From: an uncultured Chloroflexota bacterium
GTDB taxonomy: Bacteria; Chloroflexota; Limnocylindria; Limnocylindrales; CSP1-4
Assembly: GCA_903822495.1 (NCBI GenBank)
Contig: CAIJPD010000055.1
Span: 34,903 to 98,902, forward strand
DNA: 64,000 nt
Direction: 5' to 3'
A model generated the notes under the pieces. The model made no database searches. It was given only the letters and a program-made list of their open reading frames with translations, and was not told the DNA's origin. The position numbers were made by a program, and so were the translations under genes. Every line of letters begins with the position of its first letter. The stretch's first letter is position 1. Below, one piece after another: positions 9,275-64,000 of this stretch.

Positions 9275-9374
9275 GGATGTCCTTCCCTTCGGAGATGGGC
9301 GGAGCCCCGTCGGTCGACGGAGCTCCGGGTTCTGCGGGGTTGGGCGTGGGCGGCGCGTGCCGCCCGCGAGCTAG

Positions 9375-10319: not shown

Positions 10320-10377
10320 GGGTCCCCCCTCGGCACTTGGCCGGTTGCGCGCAGTCCCTCGACCAGCGCGGCGATGC

Positions 10378-10980
10378 TCAGCGCAGGTAGTAGACCGACG
10401 GCCCGGTGCCGGCTTCGGGCCGGGCGGGGCTGCCGTTTCGATCGCGGATGACGCGAGAGATCTCGCTTCCCGGATCCTCCAGGTCGCCGAAGATCCGCGC
10501 CTTGGTCGGGCAGACCTCGACGCACGCCGGCTCAAACTTGCCCGCGTCGATCCGATGGGAGCAGAAGGTGCACTTCTGGACCGTCCCGGCCGTGGACTTG
10601 AAGGACTGCTTCTCCAGCTGGATCAGCTCGCCCCCGAAGGCGCCCTGCACCTCGTGGACGTAGTTCATGGCGCCGTACGGGCAGGCGGCGACGCAGGCAC
10701 GGGTCCCGCAGCACTTGGCCTGGTCGACCAGCACGATCCCATCGGTGCGCTTGGCGATCGCCTTGGTCGGGCACGCCTTCAGACAGGGCGCGTCCTCGCA
10801 GTGCATGCACAGCGTCGGGATGAACATGCGCTTGACGTTTGGATACTTCCCGACTTCCTTCTCGTAGACCGGTGCATACCAGACCCCGTCGGGCGTGCCG
10901 TTCTCGGTCTTGCACGCCATCGAACAGGCGTAGCAGCCGACACACCGCTCGAGGTCGAGGGCCATCCCCCAACGAGTCAT
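10378..10980 (-). CDS. 4Fe-4S ferredoxin-type (DmsB/PsrB-like) electron-transfer subunit
   Basis: 200-aa ORF with four Cys groups: CVGCYACSMAC, CMHCEDAPCLKACP, CCGTRACVAACP, CTFCSHR...CVEVCP. Confidence 0.9.
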   Translation of the reverse strand: MTRWGMALDLERCVGCYACSMACKTENGTPDGVWYAPVYEKEVGKYPNVKRMFIPTLCMHCEDAPCLKACPTKAIAKRTDGIVLVDQAKCCGTRACVAACPYGAMNYVHEVQGAFGGELIQLEKQSFKSTAGTVQKCTFCSHRIDAGKFEPACVEVCPTKARIFGDLEDPGSEISRVIRDRNGSPARPEAGTGPSVYYLR

Positions 10981-11007
10981 CGTTCGTCCTCCCCCGGATG
11001 CTGTTGG

Positions 11008-13581
11008 CTAGGCCTTGCTGATCTTGATCTTGACGCAGGAGTCCAGGGCGGCGGACACCGTGTCCATCCGGTCCAGCGTGAACTGGACCAGGTTGTTGAA
11101 GTGCACGCCGCGGCTGCCGTCCTTGCCGATGGCGTCCTTGTTGCCGGCCGTTGTCCGACCGAACATGCCGGGCGCCGATGCGCACTCGGGGTGGATGCCC
11201 TCGGTGAGGCGTGCGATGCCCTTGACCTTCTTGCCGATAGGCGTCTCGATCCAGATCTCGTCGCCGTCCACGATGCCCTTCCTGGCCGCGGTGGCTCGGT
11301 TGATCCCGATGTTGAAGACCTTGCTGTTGCGCTTGGCCAGGTCCATCAGGAGCGGGTTCTCCGCGCTGTAGGTGCCGGCCATGAACGGCAGCTTCTGGTT
11401 CACCAGCCACATGTCGAACTGGGCCGGCGCCTGCTTCTCGGTCAGGCAGGGCTGGAAGTCCATGACGGCGCTGTAGTCGGAGACGTCCCACTCGATGTCG
11501 CGGGAGTCCGTGTAGGCCTTGACGGCGACGCCCGCGTCGAGGAAATGCTCGAGGTAGAGCGGCACGCGACCGCCGTGGTGGATGAGCGGGTAGGCGTACT
11601 TGGCCAGCCGTGCCTCGTCCTTGAGGTAGCCGTTCTTCCGGAAGTAGTCCAGGCCGTGGTCGGCGCCCACCGTGGACTTGGTCCAGCGGTCGGAGAAGTC
11701 CTCCCAGGTGTACTTCTGGTCGCGCTTGAGTTGGTACTCGCCGGTGATGTGGCAGGCGGCGTTGAGGGCCGTGTTCATGTCCGGCCCGATGCCCGCCCGG
11801 AAGGCGACGTCGATAAGGACCTCGCCCCAGTTGCGGGCCTTCTCGACCACCTTGACGACCGGCTGCTGGAAGTTCCAGGTGCCGGACTCGTCGACGGAGG
11901 CCGCATTCGTGAAGTTGTTGGGGTTGCCCACGAGGGGGGTCAGCCGCTCCAGCGAGTGCTGATCGGGGAGGAGGAGGTCCGCAAACGCGGCCGTCTCGTC
12001 CTCGAACGGGTTGAGCGAGACGATGAACCCGATGGTCTTCATGGCCTTGGCCATGGTGTCGGGGTCCCCGGAGGTCTGCATGATGTTGCCGCGCGAGGTC
12101 ACCAGGACCTCGCACTTGTACGGCAAGCCGAACTTGTCGCCCTCCAGCAGGCCCAGCCAGAGCATGGCCCGGGCGTAGACGGAGGTCGGGAAGAGCTCCT
12201 GGAGCTCCAGCGTCTCGGGGGCCGACACCTTGCGCCGCGGGAGCGCGGGCTTCATGTGGCCGGCCAGCGGGTTGCCGGGGTAGATGAACCCGTCCGGGTC
12301 CAGGTTGGGCCGCCAGGTGGGGCCCATCGACGACGAGTTGAGCACGCCGCCCGGGACGTCCACGGCGCCCAGCAGCATGTTGAGCTGGCCCATGAGCATG
12401 CCCGAGGCCATCGCGTGACGGTGTGCCGAGATGCCGCGATACCAGCTGATGGCCGCGGTCCGGAGCGGGTAGGTGTCACCCTCCAGCTGGATCGTCTGGC
12501 CGATGCTGGCGGCCTCGACGACCTCGTGGGCGACGCGCGTGATGGTGGCGGCCGGGACCGAGGTGACCTTGGAGGCGTACTCGGCCGTGTACGGCTCGAG
12601 GTGCTTCTTGAACACGACGAACGCCGGGGTGGCCTGCACGCCGTCCACGGTGAAGGTGCCCTCGAGGGCGGCCTCGTCGGACGGGGCCTGGTCGAACGGC
12701 AGCGCGGCGCCGGTGGCGGCGATGCCGACGAGCGGCTTGTTGGTGGCCTTGTCGCGGATGTAGCGGCCGTCGGCGCCCACCAGGTAGGTGGCATTGGTGT
12801 GGCGCTTGAGGAAGGTCTTGTCGTAGTGGTCCTGGACGATGACCCACTCGCGCATCATCGCGAGGGCGAAGGCCGCGTCCGTGCCGGGGCGGATGGGAAT
12901 CCACTCGTCCGCGTGGGAGGCCGCGTAGTTGAGGACGGGATCCACCACGGTCAATTTCATGCCGCGCTGGCGGGCGTCCTGCATCTCGACGCTGTAGCCC
13001 ATCGCGTTGTGGCCGCCGACGAAGCCCGCCGACGCACCGAACATGAGCAGGTGGTTGCAGTACTTGAGGTCGTCGTGGATCTCGTTGGAGGCCGTCAGGG
13101 TGAAGGCCACCGGGTGCGTGCCGTTCCCGCAGAAGATGCCGGCCGAGCCCATCGTCACGTTGGGGCTGCCCACGGCGGTGGAGAACGCCTTGGCGACGGA
13201 GTAGGTGTAGCGGTCGAAGGTGTGGGTCAGGATGCTCCGGGGATCCTTGTCCATGGCGGCCTTGATCTTGCTGGCGAACAGATCAAGCGCCTCGTCCCAC
13301 GAGATCTCCTTCCAGCCCGGGTCGACGCCGACGCCCTTCTGGGGGTTCGTGCGGACCATGGGGGCCTGGACGCGATTGGGGCTGTAGACGTTCATCAGGG
13401 CCGACAGGCCCTTGGCGCAGGTCTTGCCGTAGTTGGGCCCGACCCCGGGGATGCCCTCGATCTTGACCGCGACCCCGTCCACCCGGTGCACCTGCACGGT
13501 GCAGCCGTTGTAGCACATGTCACAGGCCGTCGGAATCCAGACGTCCTCAGTCACCCCTGCCATCGGAAGTGCGACCGCCAC
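11008..13581 (-). CDS. molybdopterin (bis-PGD) oxidoreductase catalytic subunit, DMSO-reductase superfamily, no Tat signal
   Basis: 857-aa ORF. The N-terminal FS0 motif is CDMCYNGC...GKTCAKG, and the size is typical of this family. GTG at 13581 is preceded by AGAGGGGAGAG. Only 32 nt separate this start from the upstream MoaD-like stop, so there is no room for a twin-arginine leader. Confidence 0.9.
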   Translation of the reverse strand: MAVALPMAGVTEDVWIPTACDMCYNGCTVQVHRVDGVAVKIEGIPGVGPNYGKTCAKGLSALMNVYSPNRVQAPMVRTNPQKGVGVDPGWKEISWDEALDLFASKIKAAMDKDPRSILTHTFDRYTYSVAKAFSTAVGSPNVTMGSAGIFCGNGTHPVAFTLTASNEIHDDLKYCNHLLMFGASAGFVGGHNAMGYSVEMQDARQRGMKLTVVDPVLNYAASHADEWIPIRPGTDAAFALAMMREWVIVQDHYDKTFLKRHTNATYLVGADGRYIRDKATNKPLVGIAATGAALPFDQAPSDEAALEGTFTVDGVQATPAFVVFKKHLEPYTAEYASKVTSVPAATITRVAHEVVEAASIGQTIQLEGDTYPLRTAAISWYRGISAHRHAMASGMLMGQLNMLLGAVDVPGGVLNSSSMGPTWRPNLDPDGFIYPGNPLAGHMKPALPRRKVSAPETLELQELFPTSVYARAMLWLGLLEGDKFGLPYKCEVLVTSRGNIMQTSGDPDTMAKAMKTIGFIVSLNPFEDETAAFADLLLPDQHSLERLTPLVGNPNNFTNAASVDESGTWNFQQPVVKVVEKARNWGEVLIDVAFRAGIGPDMNTALNAACHITGEYQLKRDQKYTWEDFSDRWTKSTVGADHGLDYFRKNGYLKDEARLAKYAYPLIHHGGRVPLYLEHFLDAGVAVKAYTDSRDIEWDVSDYSAVMDFQPCLTEKQAPAQFDMWLVNQKLPFMAGTYSAENPLLMDLAKRNSKVFNIGINRATAARKGIVDGDEIWIETPIGKKVKGIARLTEGIHPECASAPGMFGRTTAGNKDAIGKDGSRGVHFNNLVQFTLDRMDTVSAALDSCVKIKISKA

Positions 13582-53115: not shown

Positions 53116-53472
53116 TTGACCGCAGTCTGGTACGTCGTGGGCTTCGCGTTCGCGGCCGTATCGTTCGTCTTCGTCACCATCGGTGCCGCGTGGCTGATCT
53201 CCCACCGGAGCCGGGGTGACGTCCACAAGGGCGTTCCCTACGAATCGGGCATCGATACGTACGGCGACACCCACGGGCGGTTCGGTCTCTCCTTCTACAT
53301 CTACGCCCTGCTCTTCGTCGCCTTCGACATCGAGGTGATCTTCATCTACCTCTGGGCGATCGCGTTCCGCGACCTCATGGCGACCGGCTTCGTGAGCATG
53401 GTGGTCTTCGTGGCCATCCTCCTCCTGGGCCTGGCGTACGCCTGGCGGAAGGGCGTCCTCACATGGCGGTGA
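53116..53472 (+). CDS. nuoA: NADH-quinone oxidoreductase subunit A
   Basis: 118 aa with 3 TM segments. Motif YESGIDTYGDTHGRFGLSFYIYALLFVAFDIEVIFIYLW. The TTG start lies 4 nt after GAGGA. Confidence 0.9.
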   Translation: MTAVWYVVGFAFAAVSFVFVTIGAAWLISHRSRGDVHKGVPYESGIDTYGDTHGRFGLSFYIYALLFVAFDIEVIFIYLWAIAFRDLMATGFVSMVVFVAILLLGLAYAWRKGVLTWR

Positions 53473-54158
53473 ACGACGCCGCGGGGACCACGCTTCCGGC
53501 GGCATCCGGCGCGCGGGACCTGGCGGAGGCCATCGTGGTCCCCAACACGCTCTGGACGCCCACCGGGCAGTCCGCCACCGCGGCCAACACCTCCGAGTAC
53601 ACGCACCTTCGCGAGTGGGCGGAGACGGAGGGTGCCCGCCGCGACGACGCGCGCTGGGGCGGCGCCCTGGAGGTCATCCCCACCAAGGCGGACTACGTCC
53701 TGGACCTCATCCGCGCCAACAGCCTCTGGCCGCTCCTGTCGGGCCTGGCCTGCTGCGCGTTCGAGATGATGTCCAGCGCCACGTCGAAGAACGACATCGA
53801 CCGGTTCGGCATGTTCCCGTTCCGCGCCAGCCCCCGCCAGGCGGACGTGCTGATCGTGGCCGGCACCCTGACCACCAAGATGGCCGGGCCGCTCCTGCGC
53901 CTCTGGGAGCAGATGCCCGAGCCCAAGTGGTGCGTCGCGATGGGCGACTGCACGTGCTCGGGTGGCCGCTACAAGCGGAGCTACTCCACCATCGAGGGGA
54001 TCGATCGGGTCATGCCGGTGGACGTCTACGTACCGGGCTGTCCGCCACGGCCCGAGGGCCTGATCTACGGGATGATGAAGCTCCAGCAGCTGGTCAAGGA
54101 CCGTCGCGGCCACTGGCCGGAGCGCGCGATCGGCCCCACCGTCCCCACGGACGTCTAG
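53463..54158 (+). CDS. nuoB: NADH-quinone oxidoreductase subunit B
   Basis: N2-cluster Cys pattern: LWPLLSGLACCAFEM, PRQADVLIVAGTLT, WCVAMGDCTCSGG, VYVPGCPPRPE. The N-terminus before the core is longer than usual (~85 aa). Confidence 0.9.
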   Translation: MAVNDAAGTTLPAASGARDLAEAIVVPNTLWTPTGQSATAANTSEYTHLREWAETEGARRDDARWGGALEVIPTKADYVLDLIRANSLWPLLSGLACCAFEMMSSATSKNDIDRFGMFPFRASPRQADVLIVAGTLTTKMAGPLLRLWEQMPEPKWCVAMGDCTCSGGRYKRSYSTIEGIDRVMPVDVYVPGCPPRPEGLIYGMMKLQQLVKDRRGHWPERAIGPTVPTDV

Positions 54159-54160
54159 CG

Positions 54161-54706
54161 ATGGACGCCGCGCTCAAGCGCCGCCTGGAGGCCAGGTTCG
54201 GAGAGGGACTCCAGGGCCCCGTCCGGCAACGCCACGACGAGACCGAGATCCGGATCGCCCCGGCCCAGGTGCCGGACGTGCTGCGCACCCTGCACGACGA
54301 GGCCGATTTCCACTTCCAGCTCCTGGCGGACCTCGCCGGCGTCGACACCGGGACCGCCATGCAGGTGGTCTACCACCTGTGGAGCACCACCAGCAGCGAC
54401 TGGCTGCGCGTGATCGCGGATGGCCTGCCCCGCGAGGACCCGCGCGTCCCGTCGATCACGTTCCTCTGGCGAGGAGCGGAGTGGATGGAGCGCGAGGCCT
54501 ACGACATGTTCGGGATCATCTTCGAGGGCAACCGGGACCTCCGACGCATCTACATGCCGCCGGACTACACCAGCTTCCCGCTCCGCAAGGACTTCTACCT
54601 CCCGGATGACGCGGCCCGTTCCCCGGGCGGCGGCGTCCGCCACATGGAGCAGCCCGAGGCGCCCCTCGCCCCGGGCAAGACGCTCGTGCGCCGGACCAGG
54701 GCGTAG
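54161..54706 (+). CDS. nuoC: NADH-quinone oxidoreductase subunit C
   Basis: ATG at 54161, in frame within ORF 53615-54706. Motifs AEWMEREAYDMFGIIFEGNRDLRRIYMP and FPLRKDF. Confidence 0.9.
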   Translation: MDAALKRRLEARFGEGLQGPVRQRHDETEIRIAPAQVPDVLRTLHDEADFHFQLLADLAGVDTGTAMQVVYHLWSTTSSDWLRVIADGLPREDPRVPSITFLWRGAEWMEREAYDMFGIIFEGNRDLRRIYMPPDYTSFPLRKDFYLPDDAARSPGGGVRHMEQPEAPLAPGKTLVRRTRA

Positions 54707-54719
54707 GACGGGGAGAGAC

Positions 54720-55931
54720 ATGACCACCCACGCGTCCATGGACGACCCGCGCGTCACGCTCGACGAGCAGCTGGGCAGCTTCGAGCCCATCCCGCCGTAC
54801 CCGCCGCGCACCGAGCGCGAGCAGGAGTTCTACACCGTCGCCGACGGCGAGATGCTGGTCAACATCGGCCCGCACCACCCGTCCACGCACGGGGTGCTCC
54901 GCGTGGTCATGAAGCTGGACGGCGAGCGGGTCGTGGACATCGACCCGGTGCTGGGCTATCTCCACCGCGGCGTCGAGAAGCTCTGCGAGAACGCCGACTT
55001 CCACCACACCATCTCGTACATGGACCCGCTGGAGTACGTCTCCTCGCTCTTCTGCGAGTGGCCGGCGGTCATGGCCTACGAGAAGCTGCTGGACATCAAG
55101 GTCCCGCGCCGCGCCGAGTACATCCGGGTCCTCACGGGCGAATTGAACCGGATCTCCAGCCACCTGCTGGCGATGGGCTTCCACGCGCTGGATCTGGGTG
55201 GGATCACGCCCATCCTGTACAGCTTCATCGAGCGCGACGAGATGGTCGAGATGCTGGCGTCCATCACGGGCCAGCGGATGCTCTTCAACTACTTCCGGAT
55301 CGGCGGCGTCAACGGGGACCTCAACCACGAGTTCATGAGCCGCCTGGGCGACTGGATGAGCCGGGCCACGGCCCAGGTCGAGGCCAACCAGGGGCTGCTC
55401 AACGAGAACGAGGTCTTCGTCCGGCGCAACCGCGGCGTGGGCACCATCGATGCGCAGACCGCGCTCAAGATGTGCTGGACAGGCCCCAACCTGCGGGCCA
55501 CCGGGGTCCCGTTCGATATCCGGCGGGCACACCCCTACTCCGTCTACCCGGAGCTGGACTTCGACATCCCCACCCGGTCGGAGGGCGACAGCCTGGCCCG
55601 CTACCTGCTCCGGATCGACGAGATCAAGCAGAGCCTGCGGATCATCGACCAGTGCCTCCACCAGATGCCGGACGGGCCGGTGATGGCCCGGGTCCCGCGC
55701 CTGATGCGCCCGCGGCCGGGCCGCGCCTTCGCCACGGTGGAGGCTCCGCGTGGCCAGTACAGCATCTACGCCGTGAGCGACGGGACGGACCAGCCGTTCC
55801 GCTTCCGCATCCACGACCCCAGCTTCCTGCACCTGCAGTCCTTCACGCTGCTGATGCCCGGCCAGCTCCTGGCCGACTGGATGACGATCAACGCCTCACT
55901 GGACCCGATCATGGGCGGGATCGACAAGTGA
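54720..55931 (+). CDS. nuoD: NADH-quinone oxidoreductase subunit D
   Basis: ATG at 54720, preceded by GGGGAGAG. Motifs NIGPHHPSTHGVLRVVMKLDGE and GYLHRGVEKLCE; the C-terminus reads DPIMGGIDK. Confidence 0.95.
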   Translation: MTTHASMDDPRVTLDEQLGSFEPIPPYPPRTEREQEFYTVADGEMLVNIGPHHPSTHGVLRVVMKLDGERVVDIDPVLGYLHRGVEKLCENADFHHTISYMDPLEYVSSLFCEWPAVMAYEKLLDIKVPRRAEYIRVLTGELNRISSHLLAMGFHALDLGGITPILYSFIERDEMVEMLASITGQRMLFNYFRIGGVNGDLNHEFMSRLGDWMSRATAQVEANQGLLNENEVFVRRNRGVGTIDAQTALKMCWTGPNLRATGVPFDIRRAHPYSVYPELDFDIPTRSEGDSLARYLLRIDEIKQSLRIIDQCLHQMPDGPVMARVPRLMRPRPGRAFATVEAPRGQYSIYAVSDGTDQPFRFRIHDPSFLHLQSFTLLMPGQLLADWMTINASLDPIMGGIDK

Positions 55932-55962: not shown

Positions 55963-57300
55963 ATGACCGTCATGTCGCGCGCGTGGGGTCGCCTGACCCT
56001 GCCGGGGAAGGTCATCTTCACCGCCATCCCGCTGCTGCTGGCCGTGGGCGTGGCGCTGGCGTTGGTCGTGGGCATCCTGGGCGGACCCATCGTCGAGCTG
56101 GCCAGCCAGTACGGCGCGGTGCTCCGCTTCCTGGTCGCGGCCACGATCATCCTCGTGATCACGATCCCCACCGCGTTCCTGATCATCTTCATGGAGATGA
56201 AGATCATCGCCTTCATGAACCTGCGGGTGGGACCGGACCGGGTGGGCCCGTGGGGCACGCTCCTGTCCGTGGTGCACGGCCTGAAGGTCCTCGTGAAGGA
56301 GGACTTCACCCCGTCCGGGGCGGACCCGCTGATCTTCACCCTGGCCCCCGTCGTGGTCTACGGCTCCAGCGTCATGACGCTCGTCGTCCTGCCGTTTGCC
56401 CCCGGCCTGTTCGCGCAGGACTTCAACATCGGCCTGCTCTACTTCTTCGCGATGGGTGGCCTGGCCGTGGTCGGCCTGCTGATGGCCGGCTGGTCCAGCT
56501 TCAACAAGTACTCCCTGCTGGGCGGCCTCCGCTCCGCGGCCCAGATGGTCAGCTACGAGATCCCGCTGACCCTGTCGGTCGCGGGGCTCCTGCTCCTGGC
56601 CGGCACCATGAGCGTCAACCAGCTCGTCGCCAACCAGTCCGGCTGGTTCACCAACTGGTACGTCTTCCAGCAGCCGCTGGGCTTCGTGATCTTCTTCATC
56701 GCCGTGACGGCGGAGGCCAATCGGACGCCGTTCGACCTGACCGAGGCGGACTCGGAGATCGTGGCCGGCTTCGCCACCGAGTACTCCGGGATGCGCTTCG
56801 GGTTCTTCTTCTTCGCCGAGTACGTCAACGTGTTCATCGTCTCGGCGATGACCGTGGCGCTCTTCTTCGGCGGCTGGAACGCGCCGTTCCCCTTCCCCGC
56901 CCTCGCCATCCTGCTGGATCCGGGGAGCCTGGGGATCTGGCTGCTCCTGGGCATCGCCATCGTGCCGCTCGTGGGGACGCTCCTCCTCAGCCTGCCGTTC
57001 CTCCTGACCCGGAGCTCCATGCCCGCGTGGCAGGCGATCGTGCTGGGCTTCGTCCTCTTCAACGTCGTGGTCATCGGACTCCTCGGCGTCTGGGCCTTCG
57101 TCTCGTTCGACTGGGTCGCCGGCCTCCTCTGGTTCCTGGCCAAGACGTACGTCTTCGTCTTCACGTTCGTCTGGATGCGCGCCACGCTGCCGCGCGTCCG
57201 GATCGACCAGCTCATGGGCTTCGCGTGGAAGTGGCTGATGCCCGCCGCGCTGCTCAACCTGTTCGTGACGGCCGGGGCCATCCTCGTGGTGGGCCGGTGA
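55963..57300 (+). CDS. nuoH: NADH-quinone oxidoreductase subunit H (with N-terminal extension)
   Basis: 445 aa. NuoH core: IAFMNLRVGPDRVGPWGTLLSVVHGLKVLVKED, AEANRTPFDLTEADSEIVAGFATEYSGMRF. It directly follows nuoD, so no nuoE/F/G lie between them. Confidence 0.9.
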   Translation: MTVMSRAWGRLTLPGKVIFTAIPLLLAVGVALALVVGILGGPIVELASQYGAVLRFLVAATIILVITIPTAFLIIFMEMKIIAFMNLRVGPDRVGPWGTLLSVVHGLKVLVKEDFTPSGADPLIFTLAPVVVYGSSVMTLVVLPFAPGLFAQDFNIGLLYFFAMGGLAVVGLLMAGWSSFNKYSLLGGLRSAAQMVSYEIPLTLSVAGLLLLAGTMSVNQLVANQSGWFTNWYVFQQPLGFVIFFIAVTAEANRTPFDLTEADSEIVAGFATEYSGMRFGFFFFAEYVNVFIVSAMTVALFFGGWNAPFPFPALAILLDPGSLGIWLLLGIAIVPLVGTLLLSLPFLLTRSSMPAWQAIVLGFVLFNVVVIGLLGVWAFVSFDWVAGLLWFLAKTYVFVFTFVWMRATLPRVRIDQLMGFAWKWLMPAALLNLFVTAGAILVVGR

Positions 57301-57313
57301 TGGTGGTGCGACC

Positions 57314-57961
57314 ATGAACCTGATCCCCGGCATCGGCATCGTGCGGGGCATGAGCCTGACCCTGCGGCGGTTCTTCCAGCCCAAGGTCACCATCCGCTAC
57401 CCCGAGGTCCCCTCGGACGTCGCGGTCAAGTTCCGTGGCCGCCTCCAGCTGCTCTACGACGAGAACGGCTCGCTCAAGTGCGAGACCTGCTTCCAGTGCG
57501 CCCAGGCCTGCCCCATCGAGTGCATCGACATGGGCGGCATGGACACCAAGGGCCGCTTCCACGTCCACTGGGGCGCGGCGGAGACCTACGGCGAGCGTCG
57601 CGAGGAGTCCGCGCTGCGACGATCCGGGCGTCCCGTCCCTGATCCCGCCTACGAGCGCTTCGCGCCGATCGACATCGCGGCCGTGGACAGCATCCTCGAG
57701 GACTTCGACCATGACCCGGCCCAGCTGCTGGGCATCCTCGAGGCAACCCAGGCGGCCTTCGACTACCTGCCGGTTGGGGCGCTGAAGCGCATCTCCGAGC
57801 GGACCGGCACCGGCTATGCACAGATCTACGGCACGGCCTCCTTCTACGGCCACCTCCGGCTGGGCGCCCTCGGCGCACCGGCAGCGGCACCCTCGGCCGC
57901 GCCGTACCTCGCCGCGCTCGCGGCCGCCACAGGTGCAGCCGGAAGGCAGGCCGACGCGTGA
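57314..57961 (+). CDS. nuoI: fusion protein: N-terminal half of NuoI (one 4Fe-4S motif) + NuoE-like N-terminal helical domain
   Basis: 215 aa. Residues 1-120 are NuoI-like (FFQPKVTIRYPE..., C56xxC59xxC62xxxC66P), with no second CxxCxxCxxxCP motif. Residues ~124-183 read DSILEDFDHDPAQLLGILEATQAAFDYLPVGALKRISERTGTGYAQIYGTASFYGHL, which resembles the NuoE N-terminus, and no 2Fe-2S Cys residues follow. Confidence 0.8.
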   Translation: MNLIPGIGIVRGMSLTLRRFFQPKVTIRYPEVPSDVAVKFRGRLQLLYDENGSLKCETCFQCAQACPIECIDMGGMDTKGRFHVHWGAAETYGERREESALRRSGRPVPDPAYERFAPIDIAAVDSILEDFDHDPAQLLGILEATQAAFDYLPVGALKRISERTGTGYAQIYGTASFYGHLRLGALGAPAAAPSAAPYLAALAAATGAAGRQADA

Positions 57962-59280
57962 CGACCATCATCGCCACCCCGCCCCACTGGCCGGCGATCC
58001 TCCTCCCCCGGACGGCTACCGCCGATCCCACGGACCTGACCGCCGCGATCCGCAACCACGCCTTCGAAGGCCTCCGCCGGTCCTTGCGTGATGGCCCCAC
58101 CACCACCATCGCGACCATCGCCGCCGCCCGGCTGCGCGGCCGCGGCGGCGCCGGCTATCCCGCCGCGGACAAGTGGCGCATCGTGGCGGAGTCGGCCTCG
58201 GACACCCGGTACGTCGTGGCCAACGGCTACGGCGCCGATCCCGCCGTCTCCGGCGACCGCGAGTTGCTGGAGCGCAACCCGTACGCCGTCATCGAGGGCG
58301 CGGCCATCGCCGCGCTGGCGGTCGAGGCCTCGGAGATCATCATCGCCGTCCGCGCCGAGAGCATGGAGGCCATCCGCCGGCTCCGGGCGTGCATCGCCGC
58401 CGCGGAGGATGCGGGCCTGCTGGGCCACAACGTGCTGGCCAGCGGCCGCGACCTGAATGTCGTGGTCCGCCCGGTCCAGGGCGCCTACCTCCTCGGCGAG
58501 GAGACCATCCTCCTGAAGGCCCTGGAGAACCGTCGCGGCCAGCCAGAGCAGCGGCCGCCGTTCCCGGCGACCGAAGGCCTGCACGGCCAGCCCACCCTGG
58601 TGCAGAACGTCCAGACGCTGGCGGCCGTGCCATGGATCATCGTCAACGGGCCGGAGGCGTTTGCCCAGACCGGCAGCAAGGACGCGCCCGGCACCATCCT
58701 CGTGCAGCTGCGCGGCCCTGCCGGCGAGGGGCTCGCCGAGGTGCCAATGGGCACGCCGCTTCGCCAGATCATCGCCCTGGCCGGAACCGCAGCGGACGGG
58801 CGACCCATCAAGGCACTGCTGATCGGCGGTCCGTCGGGCGGGCTCCTGCCGGCCGAGCTGATGGACACCCCGTACGACTTCGACACCCTGCGCGCCGCCG
58901 GGGCCCACATTGGATCCGGATCCATCGTCGTCGCCGACGACCGCGCCTGCGTCGTTGACCTGGCGCGGCTCCTCACCAGCTGGTGCGCCGCCCAGGCCTG
59001 CGGCAAGACCATCCCGTGCCGGATCGGCACCCGCCGCCTCGCCGAGATCGGCGAGCGCATCGTCACGGGCACCAGCCGGCCGGCGGACACAACCCTCCTC
59101 GCGGACCTCTCCGCCGATCTCGTGGCCTCCGCCCTATGCGACCACGAGCGGCTGACGACCCTCCCGCTCACGACCGGGATGCGATACTTCCGGGCGGAGC
59201 TCGAGGACCACATCCTCCGAAGCACCTGTCCCGCCGGCGTCTGCCATCCCATCGCGGTGGCCGCCGGAACGGTCAACTGA
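57958..59280 (+). CDS. nuoF: divergent NuoF-like flavoprotein subunit
   Basis: 440 aa. Motifs RGRGGAGYPAADKW, GAYLLGEETILLKALEN, RPPFPATEGLHGQPTLVQNVQT. The acidic FMN loop is replaced (ANGYGADPAVSGDR). The N3 motif reads C348-G-K-T351-I-P-C354...C394. GTGA overlap with the previous ORF. Confidence 0.85.
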   Translation: MTTIIATPPHWPAILLPRTATADPTDLTAAIRNHAFEGLRRSLRDGPTTTIATIAAARLRGRGGAGYPAADKWRIVAESASDTRYVVANGYGADPAVSGDRELLERNPYAVIEGAAIAALAVEASEIIIAVRAESMEAIRRLRACIAAAEDAGLLGHNVLASGRDLNVVVRPVQGAYLLGEETILLKALENRRGQPEQRPPFPATEGLHGQPTLVQNVQTLAAVPWIIVNGPEAFAQTGSKDAPGTILVQLRGPAGEGLAEVPMGTPLRQIIALAGTAADGRPIKALLIGGPSGGLLPAELMDTPYDFDTLRAAGAHIGSGSIVVADDRACVVDLARLLTSWCAAQACGKTIPCRIGTRRLAEIGERIVTGTSRPADTTLLADLSADLVASALCDHERLTTLPLTTGMRYFRAELEDHILRSTCPAGVCHPIAVAAGTVN

Positions 59281-59287
59281 GGGGACA

Positions 59288-61918
59288 ATGACCGACCTGC
59301 TCTCCCGACCCACCTCTTCCGCCGACGCCGAGCGAGCGCTTGCCGAGCGAGCGCTTGCCGAGCGAGCGCTTGCGGAGCGCCTGCTGACCGCCGACGCGCC
59401 CCAGCGCCCGCAGTCCACCCCGGTCATCCGGATCGAGGTCGACGGCCAGGTCGTGGAGGGCCGCGAAGGCCAGACCATCCTCGAGGTCTGCCGCGACAAC
59501 GGGATCGAGATCCCGACGCTCTGCTACGAGCCCAAGCTGCCGGGCTTCGGCGCCTGCCGCATGTGCGTCGTCGAGGTCGAGGGCGAGGAGCATCCGCCCA
59601 TCTCGTGCTCGCGCCACGCCGAGCCGGAGATGAAGGTCCAGACCCAGACCGAGGGCCTCCGGCGCCTCCGGAAGACCAACCTCGAGCTGATCTTCTCGGA
59701 CCACAACGCCTACTGCCTGCCGCCCTGCCAGAACAAGTGCCCCAGCCACATCGACATCCCCGGCTTCCTCAAGCAGAACGCCGAGGGCGAGTGGCGCGAG
59801 TCGGCCCGGATCTTCAAGCGCACCATCCCGTTCCCGTCCGTCCTGGGACGCGTCTGCCCCGCGCCATGCGAGGAGCACTGCCGTCGCGACGAGATCGACG
59901 AGGCCATCGCCATCCGCGACAGCCACCGGCACGCCGGCGACCAGGTCCTCAAGGCCATGCTGGACCAGGGCATCGACCCGCCCGTCCCGTTCGAGCTCCA
60001 GCCCAAGACCGGACGGCGCGCTGCCGTCATCGGCTCGGGCCCGTCCGGCATGTCCGCCGCCTACTACCTGCTGATCGCCGGCCACGACGTGACCATCTTC
60101 GAGCGCGACGCGGCCCCCGGCGGCATGCTCCGCTACGGGATCCCCCAGTACCGCCTGCCCAAGGTGGAGGTCCTGGAGGCCGAGTACGAGTCGGTGACCC
60201 GCCTGGGCGGCCGGATGGTCTGCAACCAGGAGCTGGGCAAGGACTTCTCGCTCGACGACCTGCAGAACCAGGGCTTCGACGCCGTCGTCGTCGCCATCGG
60301 CTGCTACGACAGCAACAAGCTGGGCATCCCCAACGAGGACGCGGACGGCGTCATCGACGGCCTCGAGTACCTGCGCACCGCCACCCTGGGCCTGCCCTAC
60401 CCGGACCACGCCGGCAAGCGCGTCGTCGTGATCGGCGGCGGCTTCACCTCCATGGACTGCGCCCGGACCTCGGTCCGCCAGGGCGCCGCGGAGGTCACGC
60501 TGGTCTACCGGCGCGACATGAAGGACATGCCGGCGTCCGGCGAGGTCCACGAGGCCATCGAGGAGGGGGCGCAGGCCATCTTCCAGGCCGGACCAACGCG
60601 CGTCGTCAAGGACGAGGCTTCCGGCAAGGTCACCGGCGTCGAGTTCATCCGGATGGCCCTGGGGGCACCCGACGCCTCCGGCCGACGCCGCCCGGAGCCC
60701 GCGCCCGGCACCGAGTTCGTCATCCCGTGCGACCGCGTCCTGCTGGCCATCGGCCAGGGGCCGGACCTGACCTGGATCGGCCCCGGCAACCAGGGCGTCC
60801 AGGCCGCGCGCTACCGCCTCAAGGCCGACGCGGTCACGTTCGAGACCGGCCGGACGGGCGTCTTCGCCGCCGGCGACGTCCGGGTCGGGGCCGCCACCGT
60901 GGTCCAGGCCATCGCCGAGGGCCGGCGCGCCGCCTACGCGGTCGACGCGTACCTGCAGGGCCAGGACCTCTCCGGCATCCGTGCCCGCCAGATCCTGGCG
61001 GAGCCGCAGCCCGAGTTCCTGAGCATCGTCCCCTTCACCAGCGAGGCCAAGGAGCCGCGCTATCGGATGGCGGCGATGGAGGCCGAGGAGCGCAACCGGA
61101 GCTACGTCGAGTACGAGCTGCCGTACACGCGCGAGCAGGCGGTCGCCGAATCCACCCGTTGCCTGCAGTGCACATGCGAGGCCATCGGCTTCTGCGACCT
61201 GCGGCGCATGGGCATCGAGTACGGGACCACGCTCAAGACGCTGGAGCCCGGCCACGACCACGGCGCCGGCTACCGCTCCGTGACCGAGAACCGGTTCACC
61301 GGCAGCAACCACGACTACGTGCGCGACGACAGCCACGCCTTCATCCTCCGCGAGCCGTCGCGCTGCATCGACTGCGGGCGCTGCGCCAACGTGTGCGCCG
61401 AGGTGGTGGGCGCCGCCTGCTACGACTTCATGCGGATCGGCTTCGACACCCTGGTGACGACGCCGCTCGACATGAGCCTCAACGACACCCCGTGCGTGTC
61501 GTGCGGGCGGTGCGCGGAGACGTGCCCCACCGGCGCGCTCATGCCCAAGCCGCGGATCCTCCAGAAGTACGAAGTGGACGAGAGCCGCTGCATCCTGTGC
61601 GGCATCTGCGTCGACGCGTGCCCCTACGACGCGCTGCGCGACGGCGGCGACTACGAGCTGGCGCACACCAGCCGGGCCGAGCCCACCATCGACCTGATCG
61701 CCCTCGCCGGCATCGACCGCGAGACCGAGGTGACCTACATCCGCCGCGACCAGAGCTGGCGCGATCGGGCGGCCGCGAGCGGACATCTGGTCGGCGCCGG
61801 TCGACAGCTGCCGGTCCTCCCCGCGTCCGTGACGGCGCAGCTGGGCGCGGGCAACGGACACGGCCACGACCACGGCCCGGCCGGAAGCTCCGGCACCGGC
61901 CTCGCGCGCCTCAAGTAG
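59288..61918 (+). CDS. multidomain FeS flavoprotein: NuoG-type 2Fe-2S + GltD-like FAD/NAD(P)H oxidoreductase + 4Fe-4S ferredoxin motifs + C-terminal half of NuoI
   Basis: 876 aa. Residues 45-110 carry CYEPKLPGFGACRMCVVEVEG...SC. Residues ~135-565 are GltD-like (CLPPCQNKCP, FPSVLGRVCPAPCEEHC, AAVIGSGPSGMSAAYYL, VVVIGGGFTSMDCARTS, GVFAAGDV). Residues 690-750 carry CIDCGRCANVC...CVSCGRCAETCP. Residues 755-810 read KYEVDESRCILCGICVDACPYDAL..DYELAHTSRAEPTIDL, which is NuoI-like. Confidence 0.85.
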   Translation: MTDLLSRPTSSADAERALAERALAERALAERLLTADAPQRPQSTPVIRIEVDGQVVEGREGQTILEVCRDNGIEIPTLCYEPKLPGFGACRMCVVEVEGEEHPPISCSRHAEPEMKVQTQTEGLRRLRKTNLELIFSDHNAYCLPPCQNKCPSHIDIPGFLKQNAEGEWRESARIFKRTIPFPSVLGRVCPAPCEEHCRRDEIDEAIAIRDSHRHAGDQVLKAMLDQGIDPPVPFELQPKTGRRAAVIGSGPSGMSAAYYLLIAGHDVTIFERDAAPGGMLRYGIPQYRLPKVEVLEAEYESVTRLGGRMVCNQELGKDFSLDDLQNQGFDAVVVAIGCYDSNKLGIPNEDADGVIDGLEYLRTATLGLPYPDHAGKRVVVIGGGFTSMDCARTSVRQGAAEVTLVYRRDMKDMPASGEVHEAIEEGAQAIFQAGPTRVVKDEASGKVTGVEFIRMALGAPDASGRRRPEPAPGTEFVIPCDRVLLAIGQGPDLTWIGPGNQGVQAARYRLKADAVTFETGRTGVFAAGDVRVGAATVVQAIAEGRRAAYAVDAYLQGQDLSGIRARQILAEPQPEFLSIVPFTSEAKEPRYRMAAMEAEERNRSYVEYELPYTREQAVAESTRCLQCTCEAIGFCDLRRMGIEYGTTLKTLEPGHDHGAGYRSVTENRFTGSNHDYVRDDSHAFILREPSRCIDCGRCANVCAEVVGAACYDFMRIGFDTLVTTPLDMSLNDTPCVSCGRCAETCPTGALMPKPRILQKYEVDESRCILCGICVDACPYDALRDGGDYELAHTSRAEPTIDLIALAGIDRETEVTYIRRDQSWRDRAAASGHLVGAGRQLPVLPASVTAQLGAGNGHGHDHGPAGSSGTGLARLK
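59327..59371 (+). repeat. in-frame 15-bp x3 perfect tandem repeat (AERAL)3, plus a degenerate 4th unit to 59386
   Basis: gccgagcgagcgctt at 59327, 59342 and 59357, followed by gcggagcgcctgctg. Located at codons 14-33 of the 876-aa ORF. Confidence 0.9.
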
Positions 61919-61928
61919 GGACCGAGCG

Positions 61929-62516
61929 ATGGGAGCCTGGAAGTACCTCCTCGGCACAACGCTGCTGGCCGGCATCCTGCTGACGCCCGCCCTGATCGTG
62001 ATGGGCCCGGCGGGCGGCTCCTTCGACGACGCGCTGTTCGTCGTGCTCGCCGCGCTGATGCTGGTCTCCGGGCTGGCCGTCGTGACGATGCGCGACATCA
62101 TCCGGTGCGGCCTCGCGATGATCGTCTGCTTCCTGGCCCTCGCCGGGATCTACGGGGTGGCTGGCTCGCCGCTTGTCGCCGCGGCCCAGGTGCTGGTCTA
62201 CGTGGGCGCCATCAGCGTCCTGGTCCTGTTCGCCATCATGCTGACCCAGTCGAAGCGGGCGCCGTCGCGCCTGGTCTTCCAGACCCAGGCCGGCCCGGCG
62301 GCCGTCCTGGCCGTGATCATCGCCGTGATGGTCACGCTGACCGTCACGGGTACCGCCTGGAATGAGGTCGCGGAGCGCATGCGGGTGGGGGCCAACGCCC
62401 TCGCCGCCACCCTCTTCGCCGACTACGTCCTGCCGTTCGAGATCGTGAGCGTGCTCCTCCTCATGGCCGTCGTCGGAGGGGTCTTCCTGGCCAAGCGGGA
62501 GGGGAAGGGCTCGTGA
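61929..62516 (+). CDS. nuoJ: NADH-quinone oxidoreductase subunit J
   Basis: 195 aa with about 5 TM segments. Motif [22 protein letters not shown]. Confidence 0.9.
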
Positions 62517-62830
62517 ACCTCGCGAACTCACTGGACAGCTACCTGGTGCTGTCCGGACTCCTGTTCGCCATCGGCACCTTCGGGTTCCTCGCCCGCCGGA
62601 ACGCCATCAGCATGCTGATGTCGGTTGAGCTCATGCTCAACGCCGTCAACCTGGCCATCGTCGCCTTCGGCTCGTTCATCGAGGGCCTGAAGGCCGACGG
62701 CCCCATCATCGCGCTCATGGTCATGGCGGTCGCGGCCGCCGAGGCCACCGTGGGCCTCTCCATCGTCATCGCGATCTTCCGCAACCGGAAGACCCCGCTG
62801 GTCGACGAGTACGACGCGATGTCCCGCTGA
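62513..62830 (+). CDS. nuoK: NADH-quinone oxidoreductase subunit K
   Basis: 105 aa. Motif [27 protein letters not shown], ending [21 protein letters not shown] overlap with nuoJ. Confidence 0.9.
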
Positions 62831-64000
62831 TGGATGCGCTGACGCCGTACATGGACACCCTGATCCCGCTCATCGCGGTCCTCCCGATCGCGGGCTTCCT
62901 GTTCACGGCCGCCTTCGGCCCCCGGCTGGGCCACAACGCCCACCTGGTGCCGGTCGCCGCCGTGGGCGCGGCCTGGCTGATCGCCATGGCGGTGGTCTAT
63001 ACCTCGTTCACCGGCGGGTTCGGGGACGGCGGCCACCTGGTCAAGCTCTGGGAGTGGATCCCCGCCGGCAACTTCAACGTCGAGGCGGCGTTCTTCGTCG
63101 ACAACCTGACCGCGTGCCTCCTGATCGTGGTGTGCACCATCGGCCTCCTCGTGCATGTCTACTCGATCGGGTACATGGGCCACGACACGGGCTACTGGCG
63201 CTTCTTCGCCTACCTCAACCTGTTCATGTTCTCGATGCTCCTGCTGGTGCTGGCCAGCAGCTGGCTGGTCATCTTCGTGGCCTGGGAGCTGGTCGGCCTC
63301 TCGTCGTACCTGCTCATCGGGTTCTGGTACAAGAAGCGGTCCGCCGCGCTGGCCAGCAAGAAGGCCTTCCTGGTCAACCGGGTCGGCGACATCGGGTTCG
63401 CGCTCGGGATCATGGCCATCTGGGTGAACACCGGGACGCTCGACATCCGCGAGTCCATCGAGTTCCTGGTCACCCACACCGCGACCCTGCAGATCCCGAT
63501 CGCGGTGGTCGCGCTGCTCCTGTTCGCCGGCGCGATGGGCAAGAGCGCGCAGTTCCCGCTCCACGTCTGGCTGCCGGACGCGATGGAGGGCCCCACCCCG
63601 GTCTCCGCGCTGATCCACGCCGCCACGATGGTCAATGCCGGCGTCTACCTGGTCGCCCGCGCCAATCCCATCTTCGCCAGCGCCCCGCAGGCGATGGCCG
63701 TGGTGGCCGCGATCGGCATCTTCACCGCGCTCTTCGCGGCGAGCATCGCGCTGACCCAGACCGACATCAAGCGCGTGCTGGCCTACTCCACGCTGTCGCA
63801 GCTGGGCTACATGTTCGCGGCCCTGGGCGTGGGCGCCTGGACCGCCGCGATCTTCCACCTGATGACCCACGGCTTCTTCAAGGGCCTCCTCTTCCTGGGC
63901 TCCGGCTCCGTGATCCACGCGGTCCACGAGGAGCAGGACATGCGCAGGATGGGCGCACTGGCAAAGAAGATCCCGCACACCTACCGGACCATGCTGATCG
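62830..64000 (+). CDS. nuoL: NADH-quinone oxidoreductase subunit L (3-prime truncated by window end)
   Basis: Own translation from the ATG at 62830 (overlapping the nuoK TGA): [25 protein letters not shown]...HVYSIGYMGHDTGYWRFFAYLNLFMFSMLLLVLASSWLVIFVAWELVGLSSYLLIGFWY. The frame stays open to the window edge. It is absent from the ORF track because no stop is reached. Confidence 0.9.
   Translation, partial: MDALTPYMDTLIPLIAVLPIAGFLFTAAFGPRLGHNAHLVPVAAVGAAWLIAMAVVYTSFTGGFGDGGHLVKLWEWIPAGNFNVEAAFFVDNLTACLLIVVCTIGLLVHVYSIGYMGHDTGYWRFFAYLNLFMFSMLLLVLASSWLVIFVAWELVGLSSYLLIGFWYKKRSAALASKKAFLVNRVGDIGFALGIMAIWVNTGTLDIRESIEFLVTHTATLQIPIAVVALLLFAGAMGKSAQFPLHVWLPDAMEGPTPVSALIHAATMVNAGVYLVARANPIFASAPQAMAVVAAIGIFTALFAASIALTQTDIKRVLAYSTLSQLGYMFAALGVGAWTAAIFHLMTHGFFKGLLFLGSGSVIHAVHEEQDMRRMGALAKKIPHTYRTMLI

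Follow-up and report, generated by a model that had tools for sequence, protein, structure and literature searches.

The described enzymes closest to the one considered here are the electron-bifurcating transhydrogenases NfnABC/StnABC, known from Caldicellulosiruptor saccharolyticus (Csac; 9BOV/9BP5), from Sporomusa ovata as StnABC (8OH5) and from archaea as Nfn-Bfu (9N5U), and the predicted 'Nuo-Bfu' of Schut et al. (2022, PMC9304861), a complex I-like enzyme with 14 subunits that was found in Geobacter, Deferribacteres, Planctomycetes and Nitrospirae and has BfuABC in place of NuoEFG. Nuo-Bfu was described without a GltD/NADPH domain, and we infer that its NuoI is a separate, intact subunit, because the enzyme was described as 14 subunits, A to N, and 'NuoI' is never mentioned (0 occurrences in PMC9304861). 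Degli Esposti (2015, PMC4758237) described Mbx-like operons, from Thermotoga and proteobacteria, with a GltD-related flavoprotein in the position of NuoI. Here we analyzed a 64,000-nucleotide stretch from an uncultured Chloroflexota bacterium (Limnocylindrales, CSP1-4; contig CAIJPD010000055.1, positions 34,903 to 98,902), called the window below, and found a nuo operon in which NuoI is encoded as two halves on two polypeptides, with the genes of a flavoprotein module between them.

The operon consists of 13 genes in the order nuoA-B-C-D-H-[ORF215]-[ORF440]-[ORF876]-J-K-L-M-N, in which the bracketed open reading frames (ORFs) of 215, 440 and 876 amino acids (aa) occupy positions 57314-57961, 57958-59280 and 59288-61918; these genes, like all other parts of the operon, lie on the plus strand. 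A gap of 13 nucleotides (nt) separates nuoH from ORF215, the stop codon of ORF215 overlaps the GTG start of ORF440 (GTGA, 57958-57961), and gaps of 7 and 10 nt separate ORF440 from ORF876 and ORF876 from nuoJ, respectively. Re-reading of the window reproduced the ORFs, coordinates, GTGA overlap and 7-nt and 10-nt gaps that had been given in a first-pass annotation of this DNA.

The N-terminal half of NuoI (NuoI-N) corresponds to ORF215 aa 1-87 (57314..57574), as delimited by the NCBIfam hidden Markov model (HMM) of NuoI, TIGR01971, by PDB matches and by alignment. It contains the NuoH-contacting N-terminus GMSLTLRRFFQPKVTIRYPE and stops at the hairpin tip ...RFHVHWG. Residues 12-77 correspond to TIGR01971 positions 1-65 of 121, residues 8-45 align to positions 1-35 including the NuoH-contact segment (...TL+xFFxPKVTxxYPE...), and the PDB matches are to the part of TYKY/Nqo9 that precedes the second cysteine motif. 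The first CxxCxxCxxxCP motif of NuoI is formed by C56, C59, C62 and C66 (nt 57479-57511), all unchanged in 79 of 79 sequences, and T26, Y29, P30, R41 and G42 are invariant or nearly so across split and canonical NuoI. The NuoI-like character and the single motif (C56-C66) had been recognized in the first-pass annotation and were borne out by a six-frame scan and by the TIGR01971 match; the extent had been overestimated, since the NuoI-like part covers about aa 1-87 rather than the first ~120 aa and is followed by a conserved 30-aa linker. Three further residues of ORF215, C70, H83 and H85 (57521-57523 and 57560-57568), are invariant in the 79 sequences and sit at the end of NuoI-N (CIDMGG...RFHVHWG); possible roles are an interface or an additional metal site where NuoI is cut.

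The C-terminal half (NuoI-C) was located at aa 753-824 of ORF876 (61544..61759) by TIGR01971, hhalign and matches to NuoI/TYKY chains, in agreement with the earlier proposal that the missing part of NuoI forms the end of this protein. It starts with the second hairpin strand KYEVDESRC, contains the motif C768-C778 (nt 61589-61621) and continues into the tail DYELAHTSRAEPTIDL. Residues 756-800 correspond to TIGR01971 positions 71-115 of 121 (71-116 for the isolated tail), and the envelopes of the two ORFs, 1-65 and 71-115, are therefore complementary. About 160 nt separate the end of NuoI-C from the stop codon of ORF876; both halves thus lie between nuoH and nuoJ. The same placement holds at 80 related loci, the best of at least 432 tblastn-confirmed stretches in a species-representative genome collection that encode a relative of ORF215; these 80 are mostly labelled Candidatus Limnocylindria/Limnocylindrales or Chloroflexota.

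No single polypeptide of the operon carries both CxxCxxCxxxCP motifs of NuoI; ORF215 and ORF876 carry one each. In the six-frame scan, CxxCxxCxxxC occurred once in ORF215, the only such motif in 57314-57961, and three times in ORF876 (nt 61364, 61493 and 61589); the sole other occurrence in the window is unrelated (10912-10944, minus strand). This pattern of a one-motif ORF215-type and a three-motif ORF876-type protein recurs across the 80 loci. The scan revealed no intact nuoI or nuoEFG in the 64-kb window, and no two-motif NuoI-like ORF was present within ±10 kb at the 80 loci, so the possibility that an intact nuoI lies elsewhere in this operon, named in the first-pass annotation, was not realized.

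To characterize the two halves as a unit, ORF215 aa 1-87 and ORF876 aa 753-824 were joined in silico. The joined sequence matched TIGR01971 as one stretch over positions 1-116 of 121 with 99.2 bits, approximately the sum of its halves (49.8 and 44.1 bits; ranges 47.9-49.8 bits for the N-terminal and 44.1-48.9 bits for the C-terminal half), and every one of its 17 top-scoring families was NuoI, NdhI or FpoI or a related 2x[4Fe-4S] subunit of the complex I type. Comparison of 15 joined with 15 canonical NuoI sequences by hhalign gave a probability of 100% and an E-value of 1.7e-49 over 148 colinear columns, with a 2-residue gap precisely at the join. In the multiple alignment the inter-motif segment had the canonical length, its first hairpin strand being supplied by ORF215 (...GRFHVHWG) and its second by ORF876 (KYEVDESRC...), and the eight Cys and both Pro of the summed motifs were invariant. 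In the 2x[4Fe-4S] ferredoxin fold, each cluster is held by three Cys of one motif and a fourth from the other. A lone half would thus be unable to bind a cluster, and this two-motif ligation, together with the colinearity with canonical NuoI and the eight invariant Cys, argues that the halves re-associate, as the first-pass annotation had held they must.

The C-terminus of ORF876 was also compared with generic ferredoxins. The tail alone matched NuoI models best (E ~1e-11), ahead of the generic FdxA_fam (E 9.5e-6), which settles in favor of NuoI a question that had been left with the first annotation. FwdF/MvhB polyferredoxins top its PDB list through summed matches to a repeated 24-residue motif; a generic-ferredoxin identity was dropped because NuoI chains align over 40-60 residues including the tail. 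The NuoI/TYKY chains matched query residues 6-68, including the NuoI-specific D[YF]EL tail, whereas the polyferredoxins matched the Cys motif alone.

The split is not a product of chance or of assembly. Over 11 kb, the window is 100% identical to the independently assembled contig L002 and 99.86% identical to L001, in which one unit of a 15-nt repeat is the sole difference, and the exact ORF215 protein was found on 9 contigs from separate samples; misassembly, a concern raised when the locus was first read, found no support in these independent assemblies. The gene order H-215-440-876-J-K is present at every one of the 80 loci whose contig is long enough, the exceptions being a differently arranged second copy (L014) and genes fragmented by assembly errors in L012, L039 and L068. 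The survey of relatives thus extended the synteny to the clade and also brought further domain arrangements to light. Relative to the closest relative, L005, the ratio of nonsynonymous to synonymous substitution rates (dN/dS) was 0.084 for ORF215, 0.083 for ORF876, 0.105 for NuoH and 0.226 for ORF440, values that indicate purifying selection on the split-NuoI locus. Median cross-species identity was highest in the operon for ORF876 (83%) and lowest for ORF440 (65%), and the FAD, NADPH (YRR) and cluster motifs of ORF876 were fully conserved across relatives. A frameshifted, misassembled or decaying nuoI can draw on the observation that error-prone long-read metagenome-assembled genomes (MAGs) fragment these genes in L091, L012 and L039. 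Against it stand the 100% identity in an independent assembly, the 9 exact copies, the 432 or more stretches with an ORF215 relative, the uniform gene order at those of the 80 kept loci that are of sufficient length, the dN/dS of 0.08, the invariant ligands and the 4.6 kb of functional coding sequence between the halves; the explanation is already refuted, and its remaining probability is negligible.

Other arrangements of the coding sequence were considered and rejected. A programmed frameshift fusing the three ORFs does not fit the frames, ORF215 and ORF876 being in one and ORF440 in another, and is also disfavored by intergenic distances that range among species from overlap to more than 100 nt. 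A separate small gene for the ORF876 C-terminus, represented by homologues of 150-340 aa, was dismissed on the context of L091, where the genes are fragmented in a long-read assembly. At L091 (4018-7265), this error-prone assembly splits the ORF876 orthologue and its nuo neighbors into short ORFs, and protein databases list such fragments, 150-340 aa long, under the names 'ferredoxin', 'formate dehydrogenase major subunit' or '4Fe-4S binding protein, partial'.

The module inside NuoI is, by its domain make-up, a trimmed NAD(P)H module of the NfnABC/StnABC type (Bfu family) and not a diverged NuoEFG. The first-pass annotation had described a NuoE'-NuoF'-FeS/GltD module inside the split; its presence stood, and its type was revised by the PDB matches, which point to Nfn/Stn BfuABC rather than to a modified NuoEFG. 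In ORF215, NuoI-N is followed by a charged linker, ETYGERREESALRRSGRPVPDP (aa 88-117, 57575..57664), which had no family match in Pfam and NCBIfam HMM scans and is conserved at 90% or more of sequences per column over most of its length (79 sequences). The linker leads to the N-terminal helical domain of NuoE/BfuC (NfnC/StnA-like; aa 118-187, 57665..57874), supported by a Pfam match of aa 125-185 to positions 2-62 only of the 145 in PF01257 (NuoE) and by a match of aa 118-187 to residues 20-89 of Csac NfnC (9bov_C, E 2e-11). The thioredoxin-like [2Fe-2S] (C1) domain is absent from ORF215, which has no Cys beyond C70 (HMM and motif check). A helical NuoE domain without a 2Fe-2S domain had been noted at first pass and now has its extent, aa 118-187.

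ORF440 (57958..59280) is the NuoF/BfuB core, with the flavin mononucleotide (FMN)/NAD(H) and N3/B1 cluster domains (Pfam Complex1_51K and NADH_4Fe-4S). Its best PDB matches, NfnB (9bov_B, residues 107-526 of 584) and the StnB core, had E-values of 1e-101 to 4e-101 and surpassed any NuoF; it scored 336 bits against TIGR01959, under the cut-off of 558.65. The extra N- and C-terminal domains of bifurcating BfuB are missing according to Pfam and the PDB alignment. Several motifs are altered and conserved in their altered form (NGYGADP, V[QH]NVQT, ACGKTIPCRIG and ALCDHE): in the FMN pocket NADEGDP has become NGYGADP and INNVET has become V[QH]NVQT, and Thr351 stands in place of the second N3/B1 Cys (ACGKTIPCRIG; aa 348-353, 58999-59016). 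All 66 sequences compared have C348, C354, C394 and H396 (CDHE at aa 394-397, 59137-59148), which suggests either a [4Fe-4S] cluster ligated by three Cys and His or Asp, or a [3Fe-4S] cluster. Most NADH contacts of NfnB are retained, namely the GRGGAG[FY]P loop, a Lys, the Glu of GEET and the adenine-stacking aromatics; the latter are kept in the window protein, and the family consensus has His at one of the two positions.

ORF876 begins with a variable extension (aa 1-45, 59288..59422) that carries an (AERAL)n repeat. The following [2Fe-2S] domain of the NuoG/HydA N-terminal type (aa 46-121, 59423..59650; Pfam Fer2_4, E 1.9e-20) has invariant C79, C90, C93 and C107 and aligns to NfnA from residue 3. 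A GltD/NfnB-like insertion occupies aa 139-560 (59702..60967; Pfam Fer4_20 and Pyr_redox_2, and alignment to NfnA) and contains HxxxCxxxCxxxCP, two [4Fe-4S] sites, a flavin adenine dinucleotide (FAD) site (GSGPSG) and an NADPH site (GGGFTS...VYRR), with all motifs at least 98% conserved. Next comes CxxCxCxxxxxC and a 2x[4Fe-4S] ferredoxin-like domain (aa 625-752, 61160..61543; Pfam Fer4_Nqo3 at aa 686-751), in which C625-C636, C693-C703 and C736-C746 are arranged as in NfnA/HydA/NuoG and all Cys are invariant. H139/C143/C147/C151, C625/C628/C630/C636, GSGPSG and VYRR are likewise invariant. NuoI-C is followed by a poorly conserved His-rich tail (GNGHGHDHG; aa 825-876, 61760..61918).

The top PDB match of ORF876 aa 46-778 was Csac NfnA (9BOV chain A, E 4e-161), followed by archaeal NfnA and Sporomusa StnC; aa 47-705 also matched NCBIfam PRK12814. 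Residues 46-757 are colinear with Csac NfnA residues 3-677 through the [2Fe-2S] domain, GltD, CxxCxCxxxxxC and the 2x[4Fe-4S] domain, and the homology ends near NfnA residue 677, the start of the Fdh-like domain (CTFCGMGC), for which NuoI-C substitutes. Against the NuoG model TIGR01973 the protein scored 86.8 bits, under the cut-off of 470, with matches confined to the N-terminal Fe-S domains; it lacks the NuoG C-terminal molybdopterin-oxidoreductase-like domain and has GltD inserted between NuoG-like Fe-S domains, the hallmark of an Nfn-type BfuA. Other Bfu hallmarks are missing, namely the C1 [2Fe-2S] domain of BfuC in ORF215 and the extra metal sites B2-B5 of BfuB in ORF440. Both the window and NfnABC/StnABC have three genes in C-like, B-like, A-like order. 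However, the known enzymes are soluble and the window genes lie between nuoH and nuoJ; the window C-like protein has NuoI-N and no C1 [2Fe-2S] domain, the B-like protein has lost the terminal domains and has Thr for the second B1 Cys, and the A-like protein has NuoI-C where NfnA has the Fdh-like domain.

Three features of ORF876 deserve mention in their own right. H213 (59924-59926) is invariant and aligns with Lys170 of Csac NfnA, an unusual non-Cys ligand of cluster A7 adjoining the FAD (PMC11829005). The N-terminal extension is encoded in part by a 15-nt tandem repeat, GCCGAGCGAGCGCTT (59327-59379, 3.5 copies), which specifies (AERAL)n; its copy number varies within the population, because L001 has one unit fewer and is otherwise the same over 11 kb. 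In the His-rich tail (aa 825-876), dS relative to L005 was 0.57, compared to ~0.11 in the rest of the gene.

Relatives of the locus combine the same NuoI cut with other domain arrangements. Distant homologues of ORF215 join NuoI-N to a NuoE/BfuC that is complete and has its four [2Fe-2S] Cys. The operon of L087, L089, L090 and L086 starts with nuoABCDH followed by [NuoI-N + full BfuC, ~253 aa]; the L087-type operon continues with a full BfuB of ~636 aa, an ~824-aa [NfnA-like + NuoI-C] protein and nuoJKLMN. In this type, BfuB carries Fe-S domains at both termini, and its FMN and B1 motifs are canonical. The L086 contig stops within the BfuB-like gene and shows only the upstream part; one MAG of this group is labelled Thermoleophilia. 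L085 (1321-6023; 49% GC) encodes NuoI-N with a full NuoE (251 aa), a 1048-aa NuoE-like + NuoF + GltD fusion with GltD at the BfuB-like C-terminus, and a 265-aa NuoG-N-terminal protein with NuoI-C at its end. L092 (6481-14281; a groundwater Chloroflexi MAG) has nuoABCDH and genes for 215, 456 and 793 aa in the trimmed form of the window, followed not by nuoJ-N and instead by genes for a flavin reductase, a small ferredoxin, pyruvate:ferredoxin oxidoreductase and rubrerythrin. The second copy at L014 (7046-11981) starts with a gene for an 856-aa protein (N-terminal region of unknown type, GltD and two Fer4 motifs), followed by ORF215-like (72% identity) and ORF440-like genes; the 10 kb before it contain neither nuoH nor any other nuo gene, and the same MAG also carries a standard operon, L016. 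Within Limnocylindria, P0125 keeps three and P0148 two of the four Cys in a degenerate C1 domain, and because such remnants are retained, the sequences suggest that the C1 domain was lost stepwise.

The site of the NuoI cut is the same in four domain arrangements (L087/L089, L085, L092 and the window), with one edge of the cut at TIGR01971 positions 65-72 and the opposite edge at 69-72. This constancy bears on the idea that the operon encodes not one enzyme but two, an 11-subunit complex I of the ferredoxin type and a soluble transhydrogenase resembling Nfn/Stn, with half-motifs that never pair. NfnABC and StnABC are indeed soluble, and eleven-subunit complexes without an N-module exist. Nevertheless, neither the window nor the 80 loci contain an intact NuoI for such a core, the NuoH-contacting N-terminus of NuoI is fused to the NuoE-like domain and its tail to the NfnA-like protein, and one plus three motifs add up to two complete 2x[4Fe-4S] domains only when the halves pair. 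Since a lone CxxCxxCxxxCP cannot give four ligands to one cluster and the same cut was kept through four rearrangements, we consider two separate enzymes highly improbable.

We regard it as likely that the operon encodes a complex I with a trimmed Nfn/Stn-type input module inserted at the tip of the inter-motif hairpin of NuoI. Judged from its sequence, the enzyme most likely pumps protons as an NAD(P)H:menaquinone oxidoreductase, its input module stapled on through reassembly of NuoI. NuoI-N and NuoI-C would co-fold beside NuoB, NuoD and NuoH and ligate N6a and N6b, and the reassembled subunit would staple the flavoprotein module to the quinone module at both ends, an anchoring that may take over the docking role of the absent NuoG C-terminal domain. 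ORF440 would be gripped by ORF215 through the NuoE-type helical domain of ORF215 and by ORF876 through the [2Fe-2S] domain of ORF876, as in NfnABC, so that the module would form a closed loop with both ends anchored in NuoI. NADPH, the best-supported donor, would deliver electrons at the GltD-domain FAD of ORF876; NADH electrons would probably also enter at the FMN of ORF440, which is less certain. From there, electrons would pass along the NfnA-type Fe-S chain to the ferredoxin-like domain beside NuoI-C and on to N6a, N6b, N2 and menaquinone, with proton pumping by the ordinary membrane arm. In ORF876, C746 of the last ferredoxin-domain motif and C768 of the NuoI-C motif are ~20 residues apart, and we therefore infer that the Fe-S wire runs polyferredoxin-like into N6a/N6b.

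In NfnABC the electron path is FAD-A7-A6-A3-A2-A1 to the B1-FMN-C1 site, and A2-A4-A5 forms a dead-end branch toward the inactive Fdh-like domain (PMC11829005); this branch may be the counterpart of the one leading into NuoI here. B1-FMN-C1 is also the minimal bifurcation site of the Bfu family (PMC11829005). Because the C1 [2Fe-2S] domain and the extra BfuB domains are absent, leaving B1-FMN-C1 incomplete, we predict that the window version is non-bifurcating, a plain NAD(P)H:quinone oxidoreductase. The relatives that have the same NuoI cut and full BfuBC may additionally couple ferredoxin.

Several observations weigh against an inserted, NuoI-anchored input module. The 99.2 bits of the joined NuoI fall below the curated TIGR01971 cut-off of 113.05, and the search for an intact nuoI covered only the 64-kb window and 80 related loci of ~20 kb, that for nuoEFG the window. 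AlphaFold2 models of the joined NuoI had low confidence, with predicted local distance difference test (pLDDT) scores of 33.6 from the single sequence and 49.5 from a 17-sequence alignment. With this low-confidence model, the 45 best Foldseek matches were complex I-type subunit I from mitochondrial and bacterial complex I and photosynthetic NDH-1, at template modelling (TM) scores of only 0.3-0.38, a ranking that is mostly sequence-driven and is not counted as structural proof. The remodelled FMN pocket, the Cys-to-Thr change and the weakest constraint in ORF440 make its NADH site uncertain, and with two nucleotide sites on one Fe-S wire and nothing to bifurcate electrons, the pools of NADPH and NAD would be short-circuited.

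The last two points lead to a variant in which the enzyme is strictly NADPH-dependent, ORF440 having lost NADH oxidation to become a scaffold or Fe-S relay and the GltD FAD being the sole entry. A single active site would remove the NADPH/NAD short-circuit, and the low conservation of ORF440 (median identity 65%, dN/dS 0.23) compared to ORF876 (83%, 0.08) hints, with the altered FMN-pocket residues and the Thr at the second N3/B1 Cys, that the ORF440 site is altered or inactive. On the other hand, ORF440 mostly keeps the residues that hold NADH in Csac NfnB, its invariant C348, C354, C394 and H396 suggest a retained cluster with a His ligand, and it remains under purifying selection. We consider strict NADPH dependence possible, though rather unlikely. 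More doubtful still is operation mainly in reverse, with proton-motive force driving menaquinol electrons to NADP+ and/or NAD+ in replacement of a membrane transhydrogenase. Complex I is reversible, the GltD-type site with its conserved YRR is of the NADPH type, and Nfn/Stn enzymes supply NADPH in anaerobes, all of which favor reverse flow; yet the neighbors in the window look heterotrophic, there is no evident need for reverse flow, and the window showed no second NADH dehydrogenase to act as the forward enzyme. Our preferred reading remains forward NAD(P)H oxidation by a complex I with the inserted module.

Compared to the canonical 14-subunit complex I (Thermus thermophilus Nqo, E. coli Nuo), the predicted enzyme shares the core A, B, C, D, H, J, K, L, M and N, has NuoF-, NuoE- and NuoG-related parts, and has a complete NuoI when the halves are summed. 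It differs in the distribution of NuoI over two polypeptides, in a NuoE part lacking the N1a domain, in an N3 motif with three Cys and in a NuoG-like part with a GltD FAD/NADPH domain and no C-terminal domain; the gene order is H-I'E'-F'-G'I''-J, in contrast to the canonical D-E-F-G-H-I-J. With eleven-subunit enzymes (cyanobacterial/chloroplast NDH-1, Fpo and 'Nuo11' of anaerobes) it shares the skeleton A-B-C-D-H-I-J-K-L-M-N and a donor module attached at or near NuoI. Those enzymes, however, have an intact NuoI/NdhI/FpoI served by a diffusible donor (ferredoxin, F420H2) or small accessory subunits, whereas the window flavoprotein is covalently fused to both NuoI halves. Mbx-like complexes likewise place a GltD-type NAD(P)(H) flavoprotein at the NuoI position of a complex I-related membrane complex, but there it replaces NuoI in an Mrp/Mbx-type complex, and the window keeps a split NuoI and a quinone-type Nuo core.

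Nuo-Bfu is similar in that a Bfu-family input module, with its genes amid the nuo cluster, serves a complex I that pumps protons and reduces quinone, and the L087/L089-type relatives also keep a full BfuBC core. In the window, by contrast, NuoI is cut, its halves being fused to the C-like subunit and to an A-like subunit of the Nfn type, the bifurcating core is lost, and the operon has 13 genes rather than the 14 of nuoA-N with BfuABC for nuoEFG. The lineages also differ, split-NuoI loci being found in Chloroflexota and in one MAG labelled Thermoleophilia. Nitrospina NUO-2 (PMC3578206) was examined as a possible instance of the same system and rejected, as it has an intact NuoI, no GltD domain and scattered genes. 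In the searchable literature, which covers few subscription journals, we found neither a split NuoI nor a nuo operon with an Nfn-type module described. The first-pass annotation had known of no described complex I with such an architecture; a related idea, the intact-NuoI 'Nuo-Bfu', had been predicted in 2022.

The remaining genes of the operon are those of a complex I core. The nuoA gene (53116..53472, 118 aa) is an open frame for which Oxidored_q4 was found by Pfam on the identical gene of other contigs. It is followed by nuoB (53463..54158, 231 aa; Pfam Oxidored_q6, E 1.8e-26), whose translation retains the tandem-Cys motifs for cluster N2 (CCAFEM, CSGG and PGCPP, by motif reading), and by nuoC (54161..54706, 181 aa), a Complex1_30kDa gene call mapped from identical contigs whose frame is open in the window at 54161-54706 (ORF list). 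NuoD (54720..55931, 403 aa; Complex1_49kDa gene call) retains HHPSTHG and GYLHRG, and with them the quinone-site His and Tyr (motif reading). NuoH (55963..57300, 445 aa; Pfam NADHdh, E 4e-104) is long: residues 61-437 cover just 294 positions of the 298-position Pfam model, with a ~60-aa N-terminal extension and ~80 aa of insertions, and the L004 gene call has 337 aa. Downstream of ORF876 are nuoJ (61929..62516, 195 aa; Pfam Oxidored_q3), nuoK (62513..62830, 105 aa; ORF list, Oxidored_q2 on identical contigs) and the 5' part of nuoL (62830..64000), which leaves the window; nuoM and nuoN come next on identical contigs.

Elsewhere in the window, neighboring genes encode an amino-acid ABC transporter, an acyl-CoA synthetase, Lon and ClpB. 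A three-gene set of the membrane-bound molybdoenzyme type lies at 8504-13581 on the minus strand and comprises an 857-aa molybdopterin oxidoreductase, a 4Fe-4S ORF (10381-11007) and a 386-aa NrfD-like membrane subunit, adjoined by an arylmalonate-decarboxylase-like gene. In public annotation the split-NuoI genes appear as 'NAD(P)H-dependent oxidoreductase subunit E', 'ferredoxin', 'formate dehydrogenase major subunit' and '4Fe-4S binding protein'. No nuoI is called for them, and automated reconstructions therefore likely score complex I as incomplete in these genomes.

Few core subunits of complex I are as conserved as NuoI/TYKY, and we know of no other case in which it comes in two pieces; the split-NuoI complex I is a complex I with an exchanged input module, and the cut in NuoI appears to serve to anchor this different module. 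If our reading is correct, the abundant Ca. Limnocylindria of soil and freshwater would respire via a complex I with a built-in NADPH site, and models of their redox balance and energy yield would change. The enzyme would provide a natural example of input-module exchange on a complex I chassis, its relatives would form an evolutionary series from a full Bfu core through a degenerate C1 domain to C1 loss, and the Fe-S branch that dead-ends in soluble NfnABC would gain a suggested use. More tentatively, and with somewhat less than an even chance, these loci may represent an undescribed, widespread class of respiratory complex I with an Nfn/Stn-type module threaded through a split NuoI, in which the full form (L087/L089-type) is a confurcating complex I with an extra NADPH port and the Limnocylindria form is its aerobic, reduced derivative. 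Under this joint reading, the full form would be membrane-bound and proton-pumping and would unite quinone reduction with the chemistry of NADH, ferredoxin and NADPH, the Limnocylindria form would be an NADPH- and perhaps NADH-oxidizing complex I, and the link to the NfnABC dead-end branch would tie the origin of the complex I input module to the Bfu family. Through the relatives whose Bfu core is complete, the long-discussed bifurcating/confurcating complex I would become directly testable.

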